Source of the DNA: a virus
Lineage: Duplodnaviria; Caudoviricetes
Length of the DNA: 64,000 nt
Reading direction: 5' to 3' (one strand)
Virus record (IMG/VR): IMGVR_UViG_3300035696_000004
Span: 64,001 to 128,000 of that record
Of the stretch, positions 2,023 through 62,782 are shown piece by piece. Position numbers and translations under genes: made by a program. Position 1 is the first letter of the stretch. Each line of letters starts with the position of its first letter. The notes below the pieces were generated by a model. It saw only the letters and a program-made list of their open reading frames with translations, did not search any database and had not been told where the DNA came from.

Positions 2023-2415
2023 TTAGTTCAAGATATCGTAGAAAAGAACATCGATCACCATGGCGCGGCCGCGATGATCAGTGACCGGTATGGCGACCGC
2101 GTTGGCCTCAAGGCGGACTCTGTTATAAAAACTACTGTCGGGACGAAAAGTGATGTTATCGCTGAAAGCAACATCACCGATATCCGAACTTGTTGGGATA
2201 CGCGTAAGTCCGAGGTCGAGGAGCTCGTCATAAACGGCATCGCTGATCATAGCGCAGAAATGACTCTCCGACGGAAGACCAGCCGGAATCTTCGGGTTTC
2301 TCCGATCCAGCAAAATGTCCACCAAATAAGGTGAGTAGATAATCGGCGGTGTATCGCCGCTATCAAGGAAGTTGGAGATGCGTTTGTAGAGTTTGGCAAT
2401 TTGTTCTTTGGTCAT
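2023..2415 (-). CDS. Hypothetical protein
   Basis: ORF 2023..2538; start moved to MTKEQ to avoid overlap with upstream gene. Confidence 0.5.
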   Translation of the reverse strand: MTKEQIAKLYKRISNFLDSGDTPPIIYSPYLVDILLDRRNPKIPAGLPSESHFCAMISDAVYDELLDLGLTRIPTSSDIGDVAFSDNITFRPDSSFYNRVRLEANAVAIPVTDHRGRAMVIDVLFYDILN

Positions 2416-2440
2416 GATAGACAGACTTTCTTGAGTGAGG

Positions 2441-2833
2441 TCAGTTTTCGAAGACGCGGTAGTTGATGTTGACGTGACCGTAGTACGGGTCGACATGGAT
2501 ATATTTCGTTTTAAAATCATCCGGCCAAGACTCCTCAAAATCCGGCCCCTTCAAAATAGCCAACGCCTTACCGAATATAACGGCGTTGTGAGGTGTTCCG
2601 CGGAGGTCGAAAGACTCCTCGATGAACCCCCACTTGAGGAGATCATCGTAGAAACAGGACTTAATCCAGATCGGGAGGACAGAGATGTCCTCTTCGAGAG
2701 TTTCGCGCTCGGGGTATGGCGTATTAAGAAGATGAGCTGCTTCCGGGCTGTCAATGACGGAAGCGCAATATCCGTCATCGCGAAGCAGGTTGTGGAGGCG
2801 TTGATGCAGTTGGACGACATGTTCGGTTTTCAT
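2441..2833 (-). CDS. Hypothetical protein
   Basis: 130-aa ORF, co-directional with cluster. Confidence 0.65.
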   Translation of the reverse strand: MKTEHVVQLHQRLHNLLRDDGYCASVIDSPEAAHLLNTPYPERETLEEDISVLPIWIKSCFYDDLLKWGFIEESFDLRGTPHNAVIFGKALAILKGPDFEESWPDDFKTKYIHVDPYYGHVNINYRVFEN

Positions 2834-6334: not shown

Positions 6335-6835
6335 TTAGACCGGGTCAGTGGACTTTTCTTCGGCTTCCGGCGTCGACTCTTGGTCGAACCGATCTTCAGC
6401 GTCATCGAGCTTTTTACGCATTTCATCTTCCAGGGCTTGCAGAGCAGCCGCACGGTCTGCACCTTCTTCAGCCGGGATGAAGATTTCCTTGCCGACTTGG
6501 AAGTCAGTCGGAACGACGCCGCCGTTGGCCAGGGTTGCACGAATCAGATCTTCGGAGATTTCAGTATCGGTCGGTACCGACACAGCGATTTCGGGGTCAT
6601 CAATCTTTTCGGCTTTGGCGAAGAGCGGATCGACCGGAAGCTTTTCAGCCGAAGCGAAGGCCTTTTGCATGGCCATGACAGCGATCATGCCGCGCTGAGT
6701 CATGCGGGACAGACCAGCACGGGGATTGACAGTGACCGGTGCTTCACCGGCTTCGGTGACCGTTTTCAGAGCAGCAGCTTGTTCTTTGCGATGTTCGAAC
6801 GAACCGCGGAGTTTGGCTTGACCCATTTTTTTCAT
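6335..6835 (-). CDS. Hypothetical protein
   Basis: 166 aa; MGQAKLRGSFEHRK N-terminal motif common in phage hypotheticals; acidic C-terminus. Confidence 0.7.
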   Translation of the reverse strand: MKKMGQAKLRGSFEHRKEQAAALKTVTEAGEAPVTVNPRAGLSRMTQRGMIAVMAMQKAFASAEKLPVDPLFAKAEKIDDPEIAVSVPTDTEISEDLIRATLANGGVVPTDFQVGKEIFIPAEEGADRAAALQALEDEMRKKLDDAEDRFDQESTPEAEEKSTDPV

Positions 6836-6849
6836 TCCTTGATTTGGTG

Positions 6850-7230
6850 TTACGCGAGTTTGATAAAGGTGTCGAGTATAGCGTCGACTAGCATTCGAAC
6901 GAGGACGGCGACGAGGGCGTACCCAGCAATAGGAAAGTGCCTCGTGATCAACGCAAGGAAGCCCGCCAGTAACAACATCTTGATGATTTCTGTGCTTTCC
7001 CTCACGAAGTCGCCCGTTTTGGTGTTGATGTGAAACCGGCTATTGCGAACTTGAACTTTCCGAACGAAAGCCCGTACCGCAACAAAGCAGATCCAATCAC
7101 ACCGGAGAAAGAGCAATGAACCCAGTGTCAGCACCCAAAGTACAGCACTGACACTGATGTCGATCATGAGCAGGCATCTGACCACTTGATCGATGTACCC
7201 GATAACATCAGAAAAGACCATGGTGATCAT
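6850..7230 (-). CDS. Membrane protein
   Basis: Several hydrophobic segments. Confidence 0.55.
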   Translation of the reverse strand: MITMVFSDVIGYIDQVVRCLLMIDISVSAVLWVLTLGSLLFLRCDWICFVAVRAFVRKVQVRNSRFHINTKTGDFVRESTEIIKMLLLAGFLALITRHFPIAGYALVAVLVRMLVDAILDTFIKLA

Positions 7231-8093
7231 TCCAGAAGTTTAACAGGCCAACCCGGTTCTTTCCATGTTGCCGGAATGGGCTTGAAGGCCAACGGACTGT
7301 AGGCGATAGAGAGCGCGTTCAACGCCGCAATGGAGACACGGGAAAACTGAGCGGCACGCGTAACCATTTGCATACCGATCTTCACCGCTTTCAACTTTTG
7401 ATAGAAGAAGAGGTCATCGAAAGCCGGATCATCCGGATGTGTTTCCAGGTAGCTGATGTACTTGGTCAGCACCGGCAGAGGTGTGCTGATATGCACAAAC
7501 CACGCGTGAACCTGTGCTCGCCATTCTTGTTCAGCCGCTGCGATCTGCTTCGGGACGTTGGGATCGTGATCCGGACCGAGAACGAGCCAATCCAGATTCA
7601 ATTCCAACGGCGTGACGTGGAAGCAGTGTTCATCGATTCGGTTGTCTTTCAGGCCTCGGCCGTTCCAAACGGCTTTGGTCGAATAGACCGGTTTCAGAAT
7701 CTGACTATCCTTGAGGAATGACGCGATCACGTCAGATCCCTTGTAACGCTCGAGGTCAGCAGATGCCTCCTTGAGTGTTTGCATCGATGGCCAGATCGCC
7801 GGTATGAGTTCGCCTGTCGGCAACAACCCCACGATGTGTCCGTACTTCTTCACGAAGCGCCGGCAGCGATTGCAGTTGTGCTGCTGACGGACATCTTCCG
7901 GAAGGTTGGCTAAGAACGTATCGAATAGATCGACCGTTTTGTGAGGTTGCCCCTCGCGCGGCAACCATTTCGGGAGTTCGACGTAGTAAAGGCGCCCGCC
8001 AGAGAGATGCATGCAGGCGTCGAGCTGCTTCTGCATCTGTTCGCGGAAGAGGTTGAAGATCGGGTCTTCGTTGTGTTTGAAAGGTTTGGCCAT
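7227..8093 (-). CDS. HNCxxC-motif protein, short paralog of 25705..27366
   Basis: RQQHNCNRCRRFVKKYG vs RQEHNCSTCRRFISMYG. Confidence 0.75.
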   Translation of the reverse strand: MAKPFKHNEDPIFNLFREQMQKQLDACMHLSGGRLYYVELPKWLPREGQPHKTVDLFDTFLANLPEDVRQQHNCNRCRRFVKKYGHIVGLLPTGELIPAIWPSMQTLKEASADLERYKGSDVIASFLKDSQILKPVYSTKAVWNGRGLKDNRIDEHCFHVTPLELNLDWLVLGPDHDPNVPKQIAAAEQEWRAQVHAWFVHISTPLPVLTKYISYLETHPDDPAFDDLFFYQKLKAVKIGMQMVTRAAQFSRVSIAALNALSIAYSPLAFKPIPATWKEPGWPVKLLE

Positions 8094-9681: not shown

Positions 9682-10262
9682 AACGAATTCCCTAAGTTAG
9701 TCGATCTCTGATGCAAGAAAATGGTGATGCCTTGATCGGATGCGATCAGGTCATACTTCGGAAGAGGCTCGTTATGTTTACGAGCACGGGCCTCAACTTC
9801 ATGGAGTTCTTCCACTACCTTTGTTAAACCAATTCGATCTTCGACCGAAAGCAGCTTCAGAACCACTCGTAGTCGAGCGTTAATGAGGATAGACTGCAAC
9901 GTAACGACCCCTCTGATGTCAGTGTACTCCGTTACACCAGAGACGCTCCTGAGGGCTTTGCGGTCATCCAGAAAGAATTCAAATTCAGCCAGGACGTCTT
10001 GTTCATCTACCGTGTCGTTGATAACGAAGACCTCGAGTACGAGTTTTTTGCCAAAGAGGAGCGACTCTTTGACACGATAGATCCCACGGATCAAATCCCG
10101 CTCGTCAATATGACGTGCTTTAACTCGATCATCGCGTGCCACCATGACTTGATGAACCAACCCCGCCAGCACGAATTCATCCAGGTGTGCTTTCAACGGG
10201 TAAAACACATCCGGTATACGCACCAATTCCACATTCAGAAATTCCGTATCGATAAACCGCAT
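9654..10262 (-). CDS. Hypothetical early protein
   Basis: 202-aa ORF with AAGGA RBS, downstream of early promoter and leader hairpin. Confidence 0.7.
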   Translation of the reverse strand: MRFIDTEFLNVELVRIPDVFYPLKAHLDEFVLAGLVHQVMVARDDRVKARHIDERDLIRGIYRVKESLLFGKKLVLEVFVINDTVDEQDVLAEFEFFLDDRKALRSVSGVTEYTDIRGVVTLQSILINARLRVVLKLLSVEDRIGLTKVVEELHEVEARARKHNEPLPKYDLIASDQGITIFLHQRSTNLGNSLCLLELPSR

Positions 10263-10373: not shown

Positions 10374-10655
10374 CTACCGCTCCGTATGGCTCTTGACAGC
10401 GACGGCTGCACTGACACTCAGGATCACACTGGACGATCCTGTTGCACCAGCAGCAAAACCAACGTAGTTGAAGCTCCCAGTCTTCAGGGTGCTATACACC
10501 GTCCCGAAGATAAACAATAGTGCGACAGCAATGCAAAACGGATACCCTACGACCCGTGCAGGATCGTAATCCCCATGCATAGTCGTGGCGCAGTCGTTGA
10601 TGACTTTATACAGGATCATTTTGAAACGATCCGTATCGATACCAAACAATTTCAT
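10374..10655 (-). CDS. Small membrane protein
   Basis: 93 aa with hydrophobic segments; coupled to AAA ATPase gene by ATGA overlap. Confidence 0.55.
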   Translation of the reverse strand: MKLFGIDTDRFKMILYKVINDCATTMHGDYDPARVVGYPFCIAVALLFIFGTVYSTLKTGSFNYVGFAAGATGSSSVILSVSAAVAVKSHTER

Positions 10656-11938
10656 GTTGATCCTTTCGTCACGAGTTCCCCGATGAAGGCAGCAGGGTCA
10701 TTTCGATGCTTCATGAATTTGGCTTGCAAGGTGCTTCCAGGGCAGTCTTCAAAAACCGCACCCTCAGGAACAACGCAGCCCGGAAATACCAGATCGATGT
10801 AACGACGAATCGCTTCATCATCCAGAGGCAGGATTTCGAACTGATGGTCGCATCGACCATCCCGCAAGATATTGTCAGCGATGATTTCTTTTCGATTGGT
10901 GGTGAGAAAGATCACTGTTCGATTGAGTTCTTGGACACCATCCAGCGTATTCAAAATTGTCGTTAACGAAACGCCATCGTCGAATAAGCTCCTGACCGAT
11001 TCTTTCCCGTAAGGATCGTAGGTCGTGATCGCATCACTATCAGGGTTATGAACAGCTGGAATTTTAACTTGGGCTCCGTTCTTGTGGGTAGCGGGGCAAG
11101 AGTCAAAATCTTCAATAGCCACGATACCGCCATACGCCATGGTCATCAGTTTCGGGAACATGGTGTCCGAGCAGGTATTCAGATTGACCGCGTACACGGA
11201 TCGATCGAAGTGCCCTGCGATACTTTTGATCAACGACGTCTTACCGGTTCCTGGAACACCGTATAAAAGGATGACGAGCTTGTACGGAATCCCCCGAAGC
11301 CGATACCAGGATTCACTGGCGTAGAATTCTTCGATCAGCTTGACGATGTCTTCTTTAGTGGTGTCCCGTGTCACAATGGTCGATAGTGGTCGCTTAGGAG
11401 CACCGACAGCAGCCGCGAAATTATAGCCTTCATTGGTGTGCACATAGGAGAGATCTTTCGCATATCGCCACCGGAAAGCCTTTGTCAAGTCCTCCATGAC
11501 TTTCTTCGATCGTGTCAGGCAGTAAATGACACTTTCCATCTTTTCTTTTTCCGTCCCTGTCGAAGCTAGACGTGAATTGACGACCCAGAAGAATCGTTTT
11601 TTGTAAAAGAAGAAGTGCGTGCCGTATCCGGGCACCAAGATACCTTCTTCGAGACCATAGTCTCCTTTGAAAAAGAATTCACGACTCAACGCTAGCAACG
11701 TTTTGTCTTTGACCCATATGTTGAATTCCTTGAACTCACGTTCAAACTCCGAGGTCGAATTATTGAGCATGATCGTGGACGTACAGGCTTTGAAGATCGT
11801 GCGTCCCAGTTGATTCGGTACGCTACGCAGAGCCCAGGTCAAAATACCACCGATCCAGATCCCGATAGCCCCCGATAACATCGGGTTGGATTTAGTGAGT
11901 GCGTAGAAGGATTGCATGAAAGAAAGTGGTGTACTCAT
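10652..11938 (-). CDS. BCS1-like membrane-anchored AAA+ ATPase
   Basis: N-terminal TM helix; RGIPYK...LLYGVPGTGKT (Walker A); VAIEDFD (BCS1-type Walker B); TILNTLDG; FLTTN; RDGRCD arginine finger. Confidence 0.85.
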   Translation of the reverse strand: MSTPLSFMQSFYALTKSNPMLSGAIGIWIGGILTWALRSVPNQLGRTIFKACTSTIMLNNSTSEFEREFKEFNIWVKDKTLLALSREFFFKGDYGLEEGILVPGYGTHFFFYKKRFFWVVNSRLASTGTEKEKMESVIYCLTRSKKVMEDLTKAFRWRYAKDLSYVHTNEGYNFAAAVGAPKRPLSTIVTRDTTKEDIVKLIEEFYASESWYRLRGIPYKLVILLYGVPGTGKTSLIKSIAGHFDRSVYAVNLNTCSDTMFPKLMTMAYGGIVAIEDFDSCPATHKNGAQVKIPAVHNPDSDAITTYDPYGKESVRSLFDDGVSLTTILNTLDGVQELNRTVIFLTTNRKEIIADNILRDGRCDHQFEILPLDDEAIRRYIDLVFPGCVVPEGAVFEDCPGSTLQAKFMKHRNDPAAFIGELVTKGST

Positions 11939-12467: not shown

Positions 12468-13442
12468 TTAAGGGTGTGACCAGGCATTCAAATAGTCACG
12501 ATCGCGGAAGGGTTCCACCAAGAACGCTTCATTAAACTGCTCAGCCTGCAAGAGGCGTTCACGAATCCTCCAGAGTTCTTCGGCCTGACACGCATGACCT
12601 TTCTGACCAAAGACATCCGAGAAGCCGGTTGCTTTTTTCAGAATTTCTTGGAGTTCGGGGTTTTCGTAGATGTAGAGTATCCAAAGATGCTCGTAATACT
12701 TCCGGCATTCCTGGATATTGATCGGGCATTTTCCTTTGGCTTCTTGCCAAGAGAGTCCGGTCTGACCTCCTTCAAACACTTTGTAGCGCTGATAGAGTGT
12801 TTCGATCGACATATTCCCATACTTCTTGACCCGTGCGTAAAACGCGCTGAGTCGACGATCCCCTTTACTGCTGCACTCGAGATACGGTGCCTCACCAAAA
12901 CGCAACATGTCATTTCCTTTCTTTACTAAGCGATCCGCAATCGCCACAATTTGATCATCTGTTAAGTCGTCGACATCCATCCCCGGTGGCAAGATATGGA
13001 ATCGATCAACGTGGTGCGCTAGTAGAAAACCCCCTGCATCCCCGTCGCACATAGAGAGCGTGCGGTTAGGAATCGCTCTAAACCATTGGGTGAGGTTTAG
13101 AGGGTCTGCCCCAAATACGGCAACAGCGTTATAGCCCAGCCGTTTTAGCCGATTTGCATCGAATATCCCCTCCTGAACAAATAAGGGCTTTTTCGGATCG
13201 TACGTTTCAAGACCCCACATACCGAGCTCAACATTATGCCATCGATACCGAGAGAGGTAGGTGTAGTATTTCGCCAATTTAGGGTTGTCGGGATTGTGTT
13301 TTGGATAGGACGGGTTGTAAACCTGGAAACCAATCAATTGTCCCGATAGATTCCAAACCAAAAAGGTTGCATCCACATCCGTCACTGTCAATCCAGGGTA
13401 ATCGTCAGGATTGAGATGTCTGGAGAGGAGGTGTTGATGCAT
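12468..13442 (-). CDS. Toprim domain fused to NADAR/DarG1-like domain
   Basis: N-half: LFVQEGIFDA and DGD Toprim motifs; C-half: LECSSKGDRRLSAF..SIETLYQRYKVFEGG..FSDVFGQKGHACQA, matching DarT1-associated NADAR pattern; internal AAAGGA RBS + ATG at 12908. Confidence 0.75.
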   Translation of the reverse strand: MHQHLLSRHLNPDDYPGLTVTDVDATFLVWNLSGQLIGFQVYNPSYPKHNPDNPKLAKYYTYLSRYRWHNVELGMWGLETYDPKKPLFVQEGIFDANRLKRLGYNAVAVFGADPLNLTQWFRAIPNRTLSMCDGDAGGFLLAHHVDRFHILPPGMDVDDLTDDQIVAIADRLVKKGNDMLRFGEAPYLECSSKGDRRLSAFYARVKKYGNMSIETLYQRYKVFEGGQTGLSWQEAKGKCPINIQECRKYYEHLWILYIYENPELQEILKKATGFSDVFGQKGHACQAEELWRIRERLLQAEQFNEAFLVEPFRDRDYLNAWSHP

Positions 13443-13902
13443 GTTCGAGTTCTTTCTTTCTTTTGGCTCTGAGAGCCTGTCGGGTGATCGACCGGCAATA
13501 GGGGCAATATCGGCGCGTCTGATTCCCTTTAGGCATACGCAAACGATGTCCTCGTTTGCAATAGTCTTTGGGACAAGTCCGACCTAGTCGCCATGTCAGA
13601 TTATCGAGCGTGATCGGCTGGTCCAGATCAACGATGGTTCCGACCTCACCTTTCACGGGCGGCCTGACAAACGTCGACAACATCAGAGCATAGAGCATCT
13701 TGCGACGATAGACACCATCGATGCAGAGGCTTACACCAGGATAACCCTGGGTGTCATACGTCACCTTGAGTATTTTACCGGGGAGCATCTGCCCGTGTCG
13801 ACCGATGTGTTCCTTTGAACGGAAGTTCCCTAAGTTGGAGATTTCGTAAATTCCTTCACTCCCATATGCGGGTTTCCAGATTTCATTCATATCGAGTGTC
13901 AT
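13405..13902 (-). CDS. NUMOD4 protein with degenerate HNH region and C-terminal Cys/His cluster
   Basis: EIWKPAYGSEGIYEISNLGNFRS = NUMOD4; HNH histidines absent (IVDLDQPITLDNLTW); CKRGH...CPYC. Confidence 0.75.
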   Translation of the reverse strand: MTLDMNEIWKPAYGSEGIYEISNLGNFRSKEHIGRHGQMLPGKILKVTYDTQGYPGVSLCIDGVYRRKMLYALMLSTFVRPPVKGEVGTIVDLDQPITLDNLTWRLGRTCPKDYCKRGHRLRMPKGNQTRRYCPYCRSITRQALRAKRKKELEHASTPPLQTSQS

Positions 13903-13934
13903 TCAGTGTTCCAAATAAAAAGTATGGATGGGTC

Positions 13935-14248
13935 ATAAGGAGCAGCCCGAAGGCTGCTCCCGTAGTATCACGTAAAGAGGCACTCCATTGCATCGTATTC
14001 CTCCACTGGCCATCTGGATCGATACGATGCAACAGGCTGCTTCCTAAAGCCAAGCTATTCGGGTGCGGCAACGGACCCGATGGCCAGACTCGTGTAGAAA
14101 ACAACTTCTCGGGGATAGCGCCCACGAGCGTACGATTAAGTCAGAAGCGGTCTCGCTACAAACCACTCCGACACCTCTGATGATACATCGTGAGGTCTCA
14201 TTTGCCGCTGCCACCGCCGCATCTCGGGCAAAATGGCGCGCGGCGCTT
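13935..14248 (-). ncRNA. Unassigned highly structured ncRNA (about 310 nt) downstream of hammerhead cleavage site
   Basis: No credible ORF; successive helices found by eye, including an 11-bp perfect stem (14032-14022/13998-13988) and a 9-bp loop-distal pairing. Confidence 0.65.
13939..13960 (-). terminator. Terminator-like hairpin closing the ncRNA
   Basis: GGAGCAGCC-UUCG-GGCUGCUCC followed by UUAUG, the tail seen after other hairpins in this genome. Confidence 0.75.
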
Positions 14249-14309
14249 GACGCCACCAGATACGATGGCGTTTCGTTCCTTTATACGTGGCCGGAACTCA
14301 TCAGAAGCG
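14244..14309 (-). ncRNA. Type I hammerhead ribozyme
   Basis: CGCUU-CUGAUGA-GUUCC(13-nt loop)GGAAC-GAAA-CGCCAUC(GUAUCU)GGUGGCG-UC|AAGCG: full core and all three stems; cleavage predicted between 14249 and 14248. Confidence 0.93.
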
Positions 14310-14368
14310 TAGCCTTGTGTCTGTGCACATCATTGCGTAGCTGTGTAAAAAACCACTCGCCGGACCTA

Positions 14369-14710
14369 CTACCCACGATCAATTTCGATCGTGGACGGGA
14401 TCACGCCATTCCCTTGGCCGAGGTAGCGAACGAGAGCGAATTCGATCGACTTGAGCGGGTTCGGATCGGATTCATCGATCAGGATGCGGTATACTTGTCG
14501 TTTCGGGGTATCCGGTTCGGCGTCAGCGGTTTGCTCGTCGCCGGTGCCCAGGATGGTCTTGACGATTTCTTTGGCACGTTCTTTGATCGTGCTGGAAATC
14601 TGTTCGTCGAGGGCGCCGAGGTCGTCCGCGATGTTCCGGACCCTAATCAGGGCGTCCAGCTCGACTTCCAGGGCTTCGAATTTTTGTTTGAGGGGTACGT
14701 GTACTTGCAT
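14369..14710 (-). CDS. Hypothetical protein
   Basis: MQVHVPLKQK..., coiled-coil N-terminus; last ORF before the ribozyme. Confidence 0.65.
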   Translation of the reverse strand: MQVHVPLKQKFEALEVELDALIRVRNIADDLGALDEQISSTIKERAKEIVKTILGTGDEQTADAEPDTPKRQVYRILIDESDPNPLKSIEFALVRYLGQGNGVIPSTIEIDRG

Positions 14711-14772
14711 GGGTGTTTTCTTTCTTTCGTTGTGTGGAGTTTGGACATAGTAAAGCCAACTGATGTAAAAAA

Positions 14773-15003
14773 TCAGTCCGCTTTGTAGGTGTGGTATGCA
14801 CAGATCGTACAATACCTTCCCTCACCTGCGACTTGGGCGTATTTGAAATCATGCCCTTGTTCACCGCATTCTCGCTGGAGTTCTTCCAGTTCGAAACGAT
14901 GTGTGTTCGCGAGCTCTTGGCGTTCTTTGTCTTGCTTTGCGCGGAGACACGATACTCTCACCGCCATGATGGTCCTATGCGTCATCAATGCCATTCCATC
15001 CAC
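14773..15003 (-). CDS. Small protein with C-terminal Cys/His motif
   Basis: CGEQGHDF...CTICAY. Confidence 0.55.
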   Translation of the reverse strand: MDGMALMTHRTIMAVRVSCLRAKQDKERQELANTHRFELEELQRECGEQGHDFKYAQVAGEGRYCTICAYHTYKAD

Positions 15004-16206: not shown

Positions 16207-16980
16207 TTATTCCCGTTCGAACCATTCGGAAGGTTCGCGTTCTACAGGTTCGCGTTCAAACGGCTTGACATCCGTGACGGTGAGCGAAGACATGTCAGAC
16301 AATACTGAAAAGGCTTTGACCAGCGTCGCATTGATGAGACTTTCCACGGCCTCAGCGGTGACTAATCCTTCAAGCCCGGGAATCCAGTGAAGAGGGAGCC
16401 AATTGACGCCGATCAGTACGGCATCAGGCCCTATTTTTCCACTAAATATTTCAATATGCCCAGGGTATTTGGCGGCATCCGACGATTCTTTTTTGATGGT
16501 GCATACCAGGCTACCCGGGCAGCGAACCACCAAGCCCGGCTGAGGACCGGTACGGATCGAAATATCGAAATCGGGACGGTGCCGGAAACTTGACATTTCA
16601 AATAGATTTTGATCAATCGGACGCGGCAGAATAAGAAGACCTTTTTCATTTATGAACTCTTTGATCTTGAGGTCGAGCGCCTTGAATAAATGTTCATTGC
16701 TGAAAGAAATTCCGGTCATCCCCTTCGTGTACAATACCAGGTCGATTTTTTGCTCGGTTGCAGCGCGCTGAGTGCAGCCAACCATAACCTTATAATCAAG
16801 CAAGTAGCTTGCCGACAAACCGACCTTCCGTATGCAATCGATGACATCCGTCTTCTTGAAGATGTCGACTACGTAGGATCCGTGACTGACCGTGCCCAGA
16901 CGTTTTTCCAGGAGTTCAGCCGGAAACTCAATCGTCGATTCAGGTGCGTTCATTTTGCTTCTTTCTAATGTAGATGGCAT
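16207..16980 (-). CDS. Hypothetical protein
   Basis: 257-aa ORF; short C-terminal EREP repeats. Confidence 0.65.
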   Translation of the reverse strand: MPSTLERSKMNAPESTIEFPAELLEKRLGTVSHGSYVVDIFKKTDVIDCIRKVGLSASYLLDYKVMVGCTQRAATEQKIDLVLYTKGMTGISFSNEHLFKALDLKIKEFINEKGLLILPRPIDQNLFEMSSFRHRPDFDISIRTGPQPGLVVRCPGSLVCTIKKESSDAAKYPGHIEIFSGKIGPDAVLIGVNWLPLHWIPGLEGLVTAEAVESLINATLVKAFSVLSDMSSLTVTDVKPFEREPVEREPSEWFERE

Positions 16981-17019: not shown

Positions 17020-17787
17020 TTACAAACGTGCAGTGGTGACGCCGGTCTGACCTTGATACTTCCCGCCACGATCCTTGTAACTGGTTCGGCACGGATTACC
17101 GCGCAGGAAGACCACCTGTGCTACGCCTTCGTTGGCGTAGATCTTTGCCGGGAGCGGTGTCGTGTTGGAGAACTCCAGCGTGACATATCCTTCCCATTCC
17201 GGTTCGAACGGCGTGACGTTCACGATGATACCGCATCGTGCGTATGTCGACTTGCCGAGGCAAATCGTCAAGATATTCCGAGGGATACGGAAGTACTCCA
17301 CCGTTCGTGCCAGAGCAAACGAGTTCGGCGGGATGATGCAGTAGCCTTTCCCGGACACTTCCACGAAAGAGGTCGGATCGAAGTTCTTCGGGTCGACGAT
17401 AGCGCTGTTGATGTTCGTGAAGACCTTGAACTCATCAGCGCACTGGATGTCGTACCCGTACGAGCTGAGTCCGAACGAAATGACTTTCTCACCGTCGACC
17501 TCGCGGATCTGTTCCCCGTGGAAAGGTTCGATCATCGGTTCAAACTTGTACGAGCTATCGTACGGTACATAATCGACCGTCACCGGTACGACACTACTCC
17601 AGGTGTCGCGCATCGCTTCCATGACTCGACGGGCTTTAAAAACACCATCGTAGATCGGAATCGTCTGAATGATAGCCCCTTCCAAATCTTTAATGATTAC
17701 CCGGCCAGTTTCCGGGGTGCAGCGCGCTTCGATCTCGAAGTCAGCGAGCAAGATACTCTCAATGTAATCCGAAGCCGTAGGTTCCAT
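17020..17787 (-). CDS. dcd: dCTP deaminase
   Basis: [58 protein letters not shown]; roughly 60-aa N-terminal insertion. Confidence 0.95.
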
Positions 17788-20225: not shown

Positions 20226-20255
20226 AATGAGATAAAAAAGAAAAAAGAAGCCACT

Positions 20256-20283
20256 CCTCCTACTCCCTCACGGGAGTAGGAGG
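20256..20283 (-). terminator. Intrinsic terminator
   Basis: cctcctactccc-tcac-gggagtaggagg with T-rich tract on minus strand. Confidence 0.8.
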
Positions 20284-20289
20284 GTATGA

Positions 20290-52294: not shown

Positions 52295-52327
52295 GGAGTA
52301 CCCTCACCCGGGCGGTGAGGGTACTCC
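52295..52327 (-). terminator. Terminator
   Basis: ggagtaccctcacc-cgggc-ggtgagggtactcc followed by TTTATG on minus strand. Confidence 0.8.
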
Positions 52328-62687: not shown

Positions 62688-62740
62688 GGTGGAAATCTCT
62701 GTTTGACAGAATCATAGAATCCGCACCTGACAGCATAAAA

Positions 62741-62764
62741 GGAGAGAGCCCGAAGGCTCTCTCC
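62741..62764 (-). terminator. Terminator
   Basis: GGAGAGAGCC-UUCG-GGCUCUCUCC-UUUUAUGCUGUC, near-identical to 40880. Confidence 0.85.
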
Positions 62765-62782
62765 TCTATGACAGCTCAGCGC

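Follow-up and report, generated by a model that had tools for sequence, protein, structure and literature searches.

The locus and its ribozyme motif

We analysed a 64,000-nucleotide (nt) stretch of phage DNA, hereafter the window, which comprises bases 64001-128000 of an IMG/VR virus record and carries on its minus strand a hammerhead ribozyme motif that probably serves, as judged by comparison with other phages, as the maker of the 5' end of a conserved phage non-coding RNA (ncRNA). The record was assembled from peat metagenomes, is 219,772 base pairs (bp) long and is rated 100% complete. The motif lies between two open reading frames (ORFs), and the genes in this part of the window are nearly all on the minus strand (Table 1; positions are those of the window unless a contig is named). 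An earlier note on this DNA, made from the sequence alone, had placed a complete type I hammerhead in an intergenic region of a jumbo phage. The location agrees with this description, as the stretch is non-coding, the motif is on the coding (minus) strand, and the phage genome exceeds 200 kb and has direct terminal repeats.

The motif was read directly from the sequence. Its invariant core is complete (C3 U4 G5 A6 N7 G8 A9 and G12 A13 A14), and the G10.1-C11.1 and A15.1-U16.1 pairs and the GUC triplet are present. The order of the elements and the descriptor match show the type I topology, with stem I open and stems II and III closed by loops, and the unconstrained minimum free energy (MFE) fold of 14236-14318 is the hammerhead three-way junction. 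Together with the 5' pseudoknot strand, the hammerhead spans 14314-14244. The description of the motif as a complete type I hammerhead was thus borne out by the core, the three stems and the triplet, and also by relatives that keep the stems with compensating changes. The lengths of 5 bp given earlier for stems I and II were correct; stem III, previously given as 7 bp, has 9 bp when A15.1:U16.1 and two G-U pairs are counted, so that the motif is 5/5/9 bp. The predicted cut falls between 14249 and 14248, as had been claimed, and sits 120 nt past the stop codon of the upstream ORF.

Table 1. Features of the ribozyme locus (window positions), and hammerheads with the GOLLD matches downstream of them in six other contigs (contig positions)
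Feature	Position	Strand	Remarks
Upstream ORF, no Pfam match	14369..14812	(-)	Probable start ATG at 14710; codon score 0.385
GGCU, 5' pseudoknot strand	14314-14311	(-)	Complementary to GGCC, the first bases of loop II (14292-14289); read from the sequence
Unpaired A between GGCU and stem I	14310	(-)
Type I hammerhead ribozyme	14244..14309	(-)	Direct reading, MFE fold, descriptor scan, Markov control
Stem I CGCUU/AAGCG	14309-14305 with 14248-14244	(-)	5 bp
Core CUGAUGA	14304-14298	(-)
Stem II GUUCC/GGAAC	14297-14293 with 14279-14275	(-)	5 bp
Loop II GGCCACGUAUAAA	14292-14280	(-)	13 nt
GAAA	14274-14271	(-)	GAA 14274-14272 plus A15.1 at 14271
Stem III, A15.1 + CGCCAUCG with UGGUGGCG + U16.1	14271-14263/14258-14250	(-)
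Stem III loop UAUC	14262-14259	(-)
C17	14249	(-)	Predicted cut between 14249 and 14248
ORF-poor structured RNA, about 311 nt	13938..14248	(-)	5'-OH if cleavage releases it; fold, codon scores, shared blocks
Block B1 ACGAU	14187..14191	(-)	5' strand of long-range helix; pairs with 14136-14132
Block B2 AAUCGUACGC	14128..14137	(-)	Its AUCGU (14136-14132) forms the 3' side of the helix with B1; 10-mer identical in L345 and L354
Block B3 GAAGUUGU	14101..14108	(-)	One of two collinear blocks derived from four other lineages alone
Block B4 GCAGCCUGU	14032..14040	(-)	GCAGC can pair with GUUGU of B3, CUG with B5
Block B5 GGAGUGC	13980..13986	(-)	After a variable 10-bp hairpin
G+C-rich UUCG hairpin, then UAUGAC	13938..13961	(-)	Likely 3' boundary of the RNA
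Downstream NUMOD4-domain ORF, homing-endonuclease-like	13405..13902	(-)	Pfam NUMOD4 5.5e-13; not a conserved partner
L001 hammerhead; GOLLD	7079-7033; 6653-6186	(-)
L003 hammerhead; GOLLD	6566-6528; 6146-5724	(-)
L095 hammerhead; GOLLD	6439-6490; 6877-7310	(+)
L123 hammerhead; GOLLD	1648-1735; 2122-2551	(+)
L281 hammerhead; GOLLD	10187-10230; 10628-11075	(+)
L344 hammerhead; GOLLD	1640-1687; 2076-2550	(+)

Since Rfam reports nothing here at the gathering score, the significance of the motif was assessed with a hammerhead descriptor of our own. The window motif was the only type I motif with all stems of at least 4 bp in the 219,772-bp genome, and type II and type III hammerheads were not found in the whole genome even at 3/3/3 bp. 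The earlier statement that the window holds no second hammerhead therefore extends to the complete genome and to all topologies. When 400 first-order Markov genomes were scanned, a 4/4/4-bp motif occurred in seven and a 5/5/5-bp motif in none. The wider survey that led to this motif took in some 250,000 stretches of DNA, and extrapolation by a factor of about 0.375 per extra base pair leaves roughly one chance motif of such quality to be expected across it. Conservation therefore had to decide.

A pseudoknot-braced subclass of hammerheads

Exact-pattern scans with the core and the window's stem II returned four viral and 55 metagenomic stretches, many of which are complete type I hammerheads. 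One subclass among them has an open stem I, a loop II whose first 3-7 nt are complementary to bases lying 0-3 nt upstream of stem I, and an A-rich remainder of loop II. The window copy fits this subclass with GGCU/GGCC, and 11 other subclass hammerheads pair over 3-7 bp in the same register. The pseudoknot has a mean length of 4.9 bp in the 12 non-redundant members, compared with 2.07 bp for mismatched flank/loop pairs, and none of 20000 permutations reached this value. In five homologous loci, the sequences of stems I, II and III and of the pseudoknot differ, yet complementarity is kept.

The comparison changes two details of the model proposed before. The GG/CC extension of stem I, which had been drawn past a bulge, competes with the GGCU/GGCC pseudoknot to loop II, and the relatives favour the pseudoknot. 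Likewise, instead of a contact between a stem I bulge and loop II, the pairing of loop II with the 5' flank is more likely by comparison with the subclass members.

Pseudoknots stabilise natural hammerheads of all three types, and both the occurrence of hammerheads in phage intergenic regions and the pseudoknot as a brace between stems I and II were described by Perreault et al. in 2011 (PMC3088659). The ribozyme itself is of an already known kind: it shares with phage and prophage hammerheads (Rfam clan CL00010; PMC3088659) the identical core, the three helices, the NUH triplet, the phage intergenic site and, putatively, the pseudoknot brace. It differs from them in that the Rfam type I model misses it, the type III model giving only a low score, in that the brace of its subclass joins loop II to the single strand 5' of the open stem I, and in that hammerheads of the window type consistently precede one small structured RNA family rather than flanking protein genes.

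Two further observations were made on hammerheads in other contigs. Contig L002 carries a type I hammerhead (6413-6371(-)) immediately past a stop codon; the same strand has a Pistol ribozyme (7472-7407(-)), which exceeds the gathering score with 42.1 bits, about 1 kb further upstream. Four related viral contigs (L346 at 6421, L353 at 2426, L356 at 1643 and L358 at 1345, all (+)) hold a hammerhead-like element whose stem II contains an A-C mismatch. A ribosome-binding site and start codon follow about 20 nt downstream, so that the element may be a ribozyme-trimmed mRNA leader.

The RNA downstream of the predicted cut

Between the cut and the NUMOD4 ORF lie about 346 nt without a credible gene. 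Two overlapping ORFs are present, neither with a Pfam match, and the codon-usage scores of all overlapping ORFs range from -0.18 to 0.02, against 0.235 +/- 0.087 for the long genes of the genome. The 314 nt past the cut are highly folded (-139.7 kcal/mol; z = -4.78 against shuffles), and the complement strand of the same stretch is less stable (-121.4 kcal/mol). No Rfam family was found in the window at the gathering score, and permissive searches of the locus gave chance-level matches only. A tRNA-like reading of GGUGUGAUUGGUAG was rejected, as ARAGORN finds no tRNA there or elsewhere in this genome.

The G+C-rich hairpin that likely ends this RNA belongs to a genome-wide family. About 800 strong hairpins were counted in the genome, and 44 of them are of the hairpin+TATG type, where about 12 would be expected. 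Because these elements form such a family, the hairpin at 13961-13938 can be read as a normal unit boundary in this phage, and it may terminate transcription. The 44 long G+C-rich hairpins carry TATG(A/C/T)C within a few bases and have no U-tract; examples in the window, besides the one already named, are 2011-1984, 17008-16983, 20255-20284, 40901-40878, 52295-52327 and 62740-62767. At 17008-16983, the ATG of the TATG also starts the longest ORF (16207..16980).

The same unit in five other phage contigs

The layout is kept in five other phage contigs, at least two of them from genomes larger than 230 kb: a type I hammerhead with the pseudoknot between loop II and the 5' flank, and behind it 230-330 nt of folded RNA that lacks ORFs. 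Among the four viral pattern matches was the 231,818-bp phage G001, which shares 30-40% identity in core proteins with the window genome and whose cargo is an ORF-free RNA of about 290 nt (z = -4.67) with a UUCG hairpin at its end. A whole-record pattern scan of 40 large phage contigs (the dCTP-deaminase set) gave a single real match, G028 (266,566 bp), as the third case, and a pattern for A-rich loops gave G042 as the fourth. Aligning these four cargo RNAs exposed a GCARCCURU block; with this block and the ribozyme as a pattern, L345 and L354 were found. Both are homologous to G042 over their whole length, and their hairpins differ in sequence and still pair.

All six RNAs carry ACGRU, AAYYGURYG, GAAGYUGU, GCARCCURU and RGRGUGC in the same order and at similar spacing. 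The helix between the first two blocks (B1:B2) reads ACGAU/AUCGU in the window, L345 and L354, ACGGU/ACCGU in G001 and G042, and ACAGU/ACUGU in G028. In an end-anchored alignment of the six sequences it covaries, with 30 of 30 cells paired and two-sided change in two of the five pairs; one of 500 shuffles scored as high, and slid controls were 10-40% paired. When B3 and B4 were re-derived from the other four lineages alone, the pair occurred once in the 220-kb genome, as did the four-block chain, in each case within the 311 nt after the ribozyme. The probability of such a placement by chance is about 1e-3 or less. A terminal hairpin ends the unit in four of the six loci.

The similarity between the cargo RNAs is confined to short blocks with variable hairpins between them. 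Two-sided covariation was not found for B3:B4 (GUUGU/GCAGC) or for B4:B5 (CUR/YRG around the variable hairpin), where changes are absent or one-sided. Each lineage has a sequence of its own in the hairpin between B3 and B4, which pairs on visual inspection. No Rfam family matched any of the six loci, and the cargo appears, from these sequence comparisons, to be a further phage ncRNA family of about 300 nt without an Rfam match.

Attempts to extend the family gave little. The strong matches of a covariance model of the 3' module among 45 phage records were training members only, new ones being marginal and at the chance rate; a cargo pattern with a longer gap gave no matches, and all 44 pattern matches in bacterial genomes were judged to be chance. 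A module of GAAGUUGU, a hairpin and GCAGCCUG that looks real by eye was seen in G018 (L407, about 1495-1545 on the minus strand) and in G017 (L410), in both cases inside longer ORF-free regions without an Rfam match or a canonical hammerhead. The module of L410 (1500-1545) follows a tRNA (1170-1242) and a hammerhead-like element (1260-1285) that lacks G12 (CUGAUGA-GCCG...CGGC-AAAC).

The genes that follow the unit are not related in this way. A small acidic ORF follows it in G001 and an unrelated 132-aa ORF in G028, and the other loci have a different gene or none on the same strand. Since the downstream protein gene differs at every locus, the constant partner of the ribozyme is the RNA and not a gene. 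In G042, no ORF of at least 50 aa lies on the strand of the unit, a 14-bp stem and 11 consecutive U close the unit, and the gene beyond it is convergent; the unit there cannot, therefore, act as leader to a gene downstream. The scan tool did not confirm a sigma-70 promoter for this unit. The comparison supports the earlier proposal that the ribozyme defines the 5' end of a downstream RNA, as a covarying hammerhead of the same architecture precedes a related ncRNA in the five other contigs.

Related hammerheads upstream of GOLLD RNA

GOLLD RNA (RF02032) is, like the window cargo, phage-encoded, ORF-free and highly folded. Its structure was solved in 2025, and we know of no established function or natural ends for it. 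We found the same hammerhead subclass 380-397 nt upstream of an Rfam GOLLD match in seven independent contigs (L001, L003, L093, L095, L123, L281 and L344). All seven were found via the hammerhead and are therefore not a sample of GOLLD RNAs at large; 151 Bacilli genomes, in which an unbiased sample was sought, yielded no GOLLD match. The Rfam model covers the conserved 3' region of GOLLD, and the 5' region is about 420 nt long (residues 1-420) according to the paper that reports the cryo-electron microscopy structure (PMC12286853). Since the distance of 380-397 nt matches the length of this region, the cut would fall at the GOLLD 5' end.

Like the window hammerhead, the GOLLD-linked ones have the pseudoknot between loop II and the 5' flank and an A-rich loop II, and stem II is GUUCC/GGAAC in all seven contigs except L281 and L344. 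The core is preceded in L001 and L003 by a sigma-70-like promoter (10/12) whose end is about 17-21 nt away; because the promoter directly precedes it, the ribozyme in these contigs would remove only itself and a short leader. The related hammerheads thus appear to do the same 5'-end job for GOLLD RNA. No mention of a hammerhead-GOLLD link, or of a fixed pairing between a hammerhead and an RNA of about 300 nt, was found in the searchable literature, and PMC12286853 does not mention hammerheads.

The possibility that the window cargo is itself a GOLLD homologue was rejected. The window gave no match at the gathering score or at E values up to 10, and a profile built from hammerhead plus GOLLD (nhmmer) matched the ribozyme part only. 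The cargo is also shorter, at about 310 nt against about 830 nt, and its genome is without tRNA genes.

In L344 (G044), the GOLLD at 2076-2550 lies in a tRNA array between two type I hammerheads (1640-1687 and 2565-2608), the second of which starts 15 nt past the GOLLD 3' end. GOLLD excised from this locus would bear a 5'-OH and a 2',3'-cyclic phosphate, ends that are joined by RtcB ligase.

Neighbouring genes

The upstream ORF has no relative in IMG/VR, and a 796-aa protein matches only small unrelated phages. No useful match came from BLAST searches with 3 kb of sequence or with the 85-nt motif against 50,697 phage records. In the NUMOD4 ORF, Pfam detected no nuclease domain, and a hairpin+TATG element (13560-13538) lies inside the ORF. 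Another single ORF (12468-13442(-)) has both a Toprim-like N-terminal part and a NADAR domain (Pfam NADAR-DarT1, 8.2e-08), and many phages of Rhizobium, Salmonella and Escherichia have proteins with 50-60% identity to its C-terminal half.

In G000, G001 and G042, the hammerhead-RNA unit has a dCTP-deaminase-like gene (17020-17787(-) in the window, 4707-5390 in L323 and 4546-5268 in L011) no more than 3-7 kb away. Next to this gene, G042 has a NADAR-like ORF, which points to loose synteny of an accessory region. No hammerhead was found in 80 loci around dCTP-deaminase homologues.

Proposed role and alternative explanations

We infer cleavage, the transcript context and the 3' end of the RNA, and propose the following sequence of events. 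The minus strand across the ribozyme would be transcribed, most likely at the end of a transcript of the upstream gene; co-transcription with this gene is expected because no promoter was detected between its stop codon and the ribozyme. None of the results supports the earlier description of this transcript as an early polycistronic mRNA. The ribozyme would fold with stems I and II held parallel by the short pseudoknot between the GGCC of loop II and the GGCU 5' of stem I, and would cut itself after C14249. The ribozyme would stay on the upstream product, which would carry a 2',3'-cyclic phosphate. Downstream, the product would start at A14248 with a 5'-OH and would be a folded ncRNA of about 311 nt ending at the UUCG hairpin, its exact 5' end freeing it from the upstream mRNA and from any 5' triphosphate.

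These steps can be held with different degrees of confidence. The window element is almost certainly a real, selected hammerhead, because its stems and pseudoknot vary in sequence yet stay complementary in all six loci. Self-cleavage between 14249 and 14248 is very probable, and the role as 5'-end maker of the conserved ncRNA is likely.

The possibility exists that the hammerhead acts on mRNA, splitting the upstream cistrons from the NUMOD4 message, so that the 310 nt would be a structured 5' leader that tunes stability or translation. The NUMOD4 ORF does start 36 nt past the hairpin on the same strand, and prophage hammerheads often flank single genes (PMC3088659). However, the downstream gene is not conserved (those of G001, G028 and G042 differ), whereas the RNA blocks are, and a boundary element of the hairpin+TATG type separates the RNA from the ORF. 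We therefore regard this explanation as rather unlikely. It would make the ribozyme similar to GIR1. The GIR1 lariat-capping ribozyme sits upstream of intron-encoded homing endonuclease genes, and the window ribozyme resembles it in lying upstream of a homing-endonuclease-type ORF and in setting, as proposed, the 5' end of a downstream RNA. The two differ in fold and chemistry, the endonuclease gene is not a conserved partner in loci of the window type, and no group I intron signal was found, with no Rfam intron match at E values up to 10 in 13850-14400.

It is also possible that the main purpose is the upstream product, an operon mRNA with a compact, structured 3' end whose 2',3'-cyclic phosphate resists 3' exonucleases, the downstream RNA being a by-product or spacer. 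The type I layout would leave the ribozyme on the upstream RNA, co-transcription is likely, and the ribozyme of G028 begins immediately past a stop codon. Against this, the upstream genes are unrelated among the six loci, the promoter directly before the ribozyme in L001 and L003 leaves nothing useful upstream there, and the downstream RNA, unlike a spacer, has conserved blocks and a covarying helix. We consider this explanation unlikely.

Circular or mobile RNA was also considered. Retrozymes and viroid-like RNAs use hammerheads to form the ends of circular or mobile RNAs, and the two hammerheads that flank GOLLD in G044 would provide ligatable ends, the 5'-OH being joined by an RtcB-type ligase to the 2',3'-cyclic phosphate; since the window genome has a single ribozyme, the 3' end of its unit is a hairpin and not a ribozyme, and neither direct repeats nor a second cleavage site were seen, such a function is very improbable here. 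Equally improbable is a chance match to the hammerhead consensus without activity or function, for which the roughly one motif expected in the survey, the missing Rfam call and the ordinary fold energy of the 83-nt motif (z = -0.14) would speak, as the motif lies between genes on the coding strand, five other phage contigs have a related RNA behind a hammerhead of this architecture with compensating stem changes, and the cargo blocks occur nowhere else in the genome.

Several results weigh against the role as 5'-end maker. The stretch was found in three peat DNA runs, all identical in sequence, and the sequencing runs that hold it are peat metagenomes only, that is, DNA. The interval from the upstream stop to the ribozyme gave no promoter. 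A U-tract is absent from the 3' hairpin, and the B1:B2 helix has a competitor in this genome, the local hairpin ACCUC...GAGGU. The window pseudoknot is the weakest of the set, with 4 bp including one G-U pair, a length reached by 10.6% of mismatched pairs. Leave-one-out nhmmer searches with the other five cargo RNAs did not retrieve the window RNA (E = 7.4 at best, or nothing), and pairwise word-chain tests were only modest (p = 0.017-0.31). Because the profile of the other five misses it, the membership of the window RNA in the family rests on the short blocks and one 5-bp helix.

The Rfam hammerhead models, which the earlier note had named as a check, also belong here, as a search with them did not report the window motif at the gathering score. 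The best permissive match was a partial one to Hammerhead_3 (RF00008), which scored 16.5 bits where 48.5 are required. Of the four relatives searched first, L003 alone matched an Rfam hammerhead model at all (HH9, 26.6 bits; cut-off 52), which suggests that the failure reflects low sensitivity of the models for this subclass and not a false motif.

Implications

The preferred reading, in which the hammerhead forms the 5' end of the ncRNA, has a parallel in the laboratory, where engineered 5' hammerhead cassettes give transcripts an exact 5'-OH end. In both cases, a type I ribozyme lies directly 5' of its cargo and stem I is formed with the first bases of the cargo. The window ribozyme differs from such cassettes in being natural, conserved and probably braced by a pseudoknot, and it is probably fed by read-through from the upstream gene and not by a promoter of its own.

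Thousands of bacterial and phage hammerheads are known, and to our knowledge their purpose has been open since 2011. A fixed partner in the form of a conserved folded RNA that starts exactly at the cut would give them a simple, testable job, the formation of an exact 5'-OH end. Constructs of GOLLD and of the new RNA could also be given natural boundaries at the cut sites. As the Rfam hammerhead models miss this subclass, the region downstream of its members offers a search handle for more phage ncRNAs. In a wider and still tentative view, self-cleaving ribozymes may be the standard means by which a whole class of structured phage ncRNAs obtains its 5' ends, with a single hammerhead subclass capping both the giant, cage-forming GOLLD RNA and a so far undescribed family of giant-phage ncRNAs of about 300 nt, to which the window RNA would belong. 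If this is true, the 5'-OH end would be functionally required, for example for stability, assembly or RtcB-type ligation, and the hammerheads of bacteria and phages would have a concrete role.

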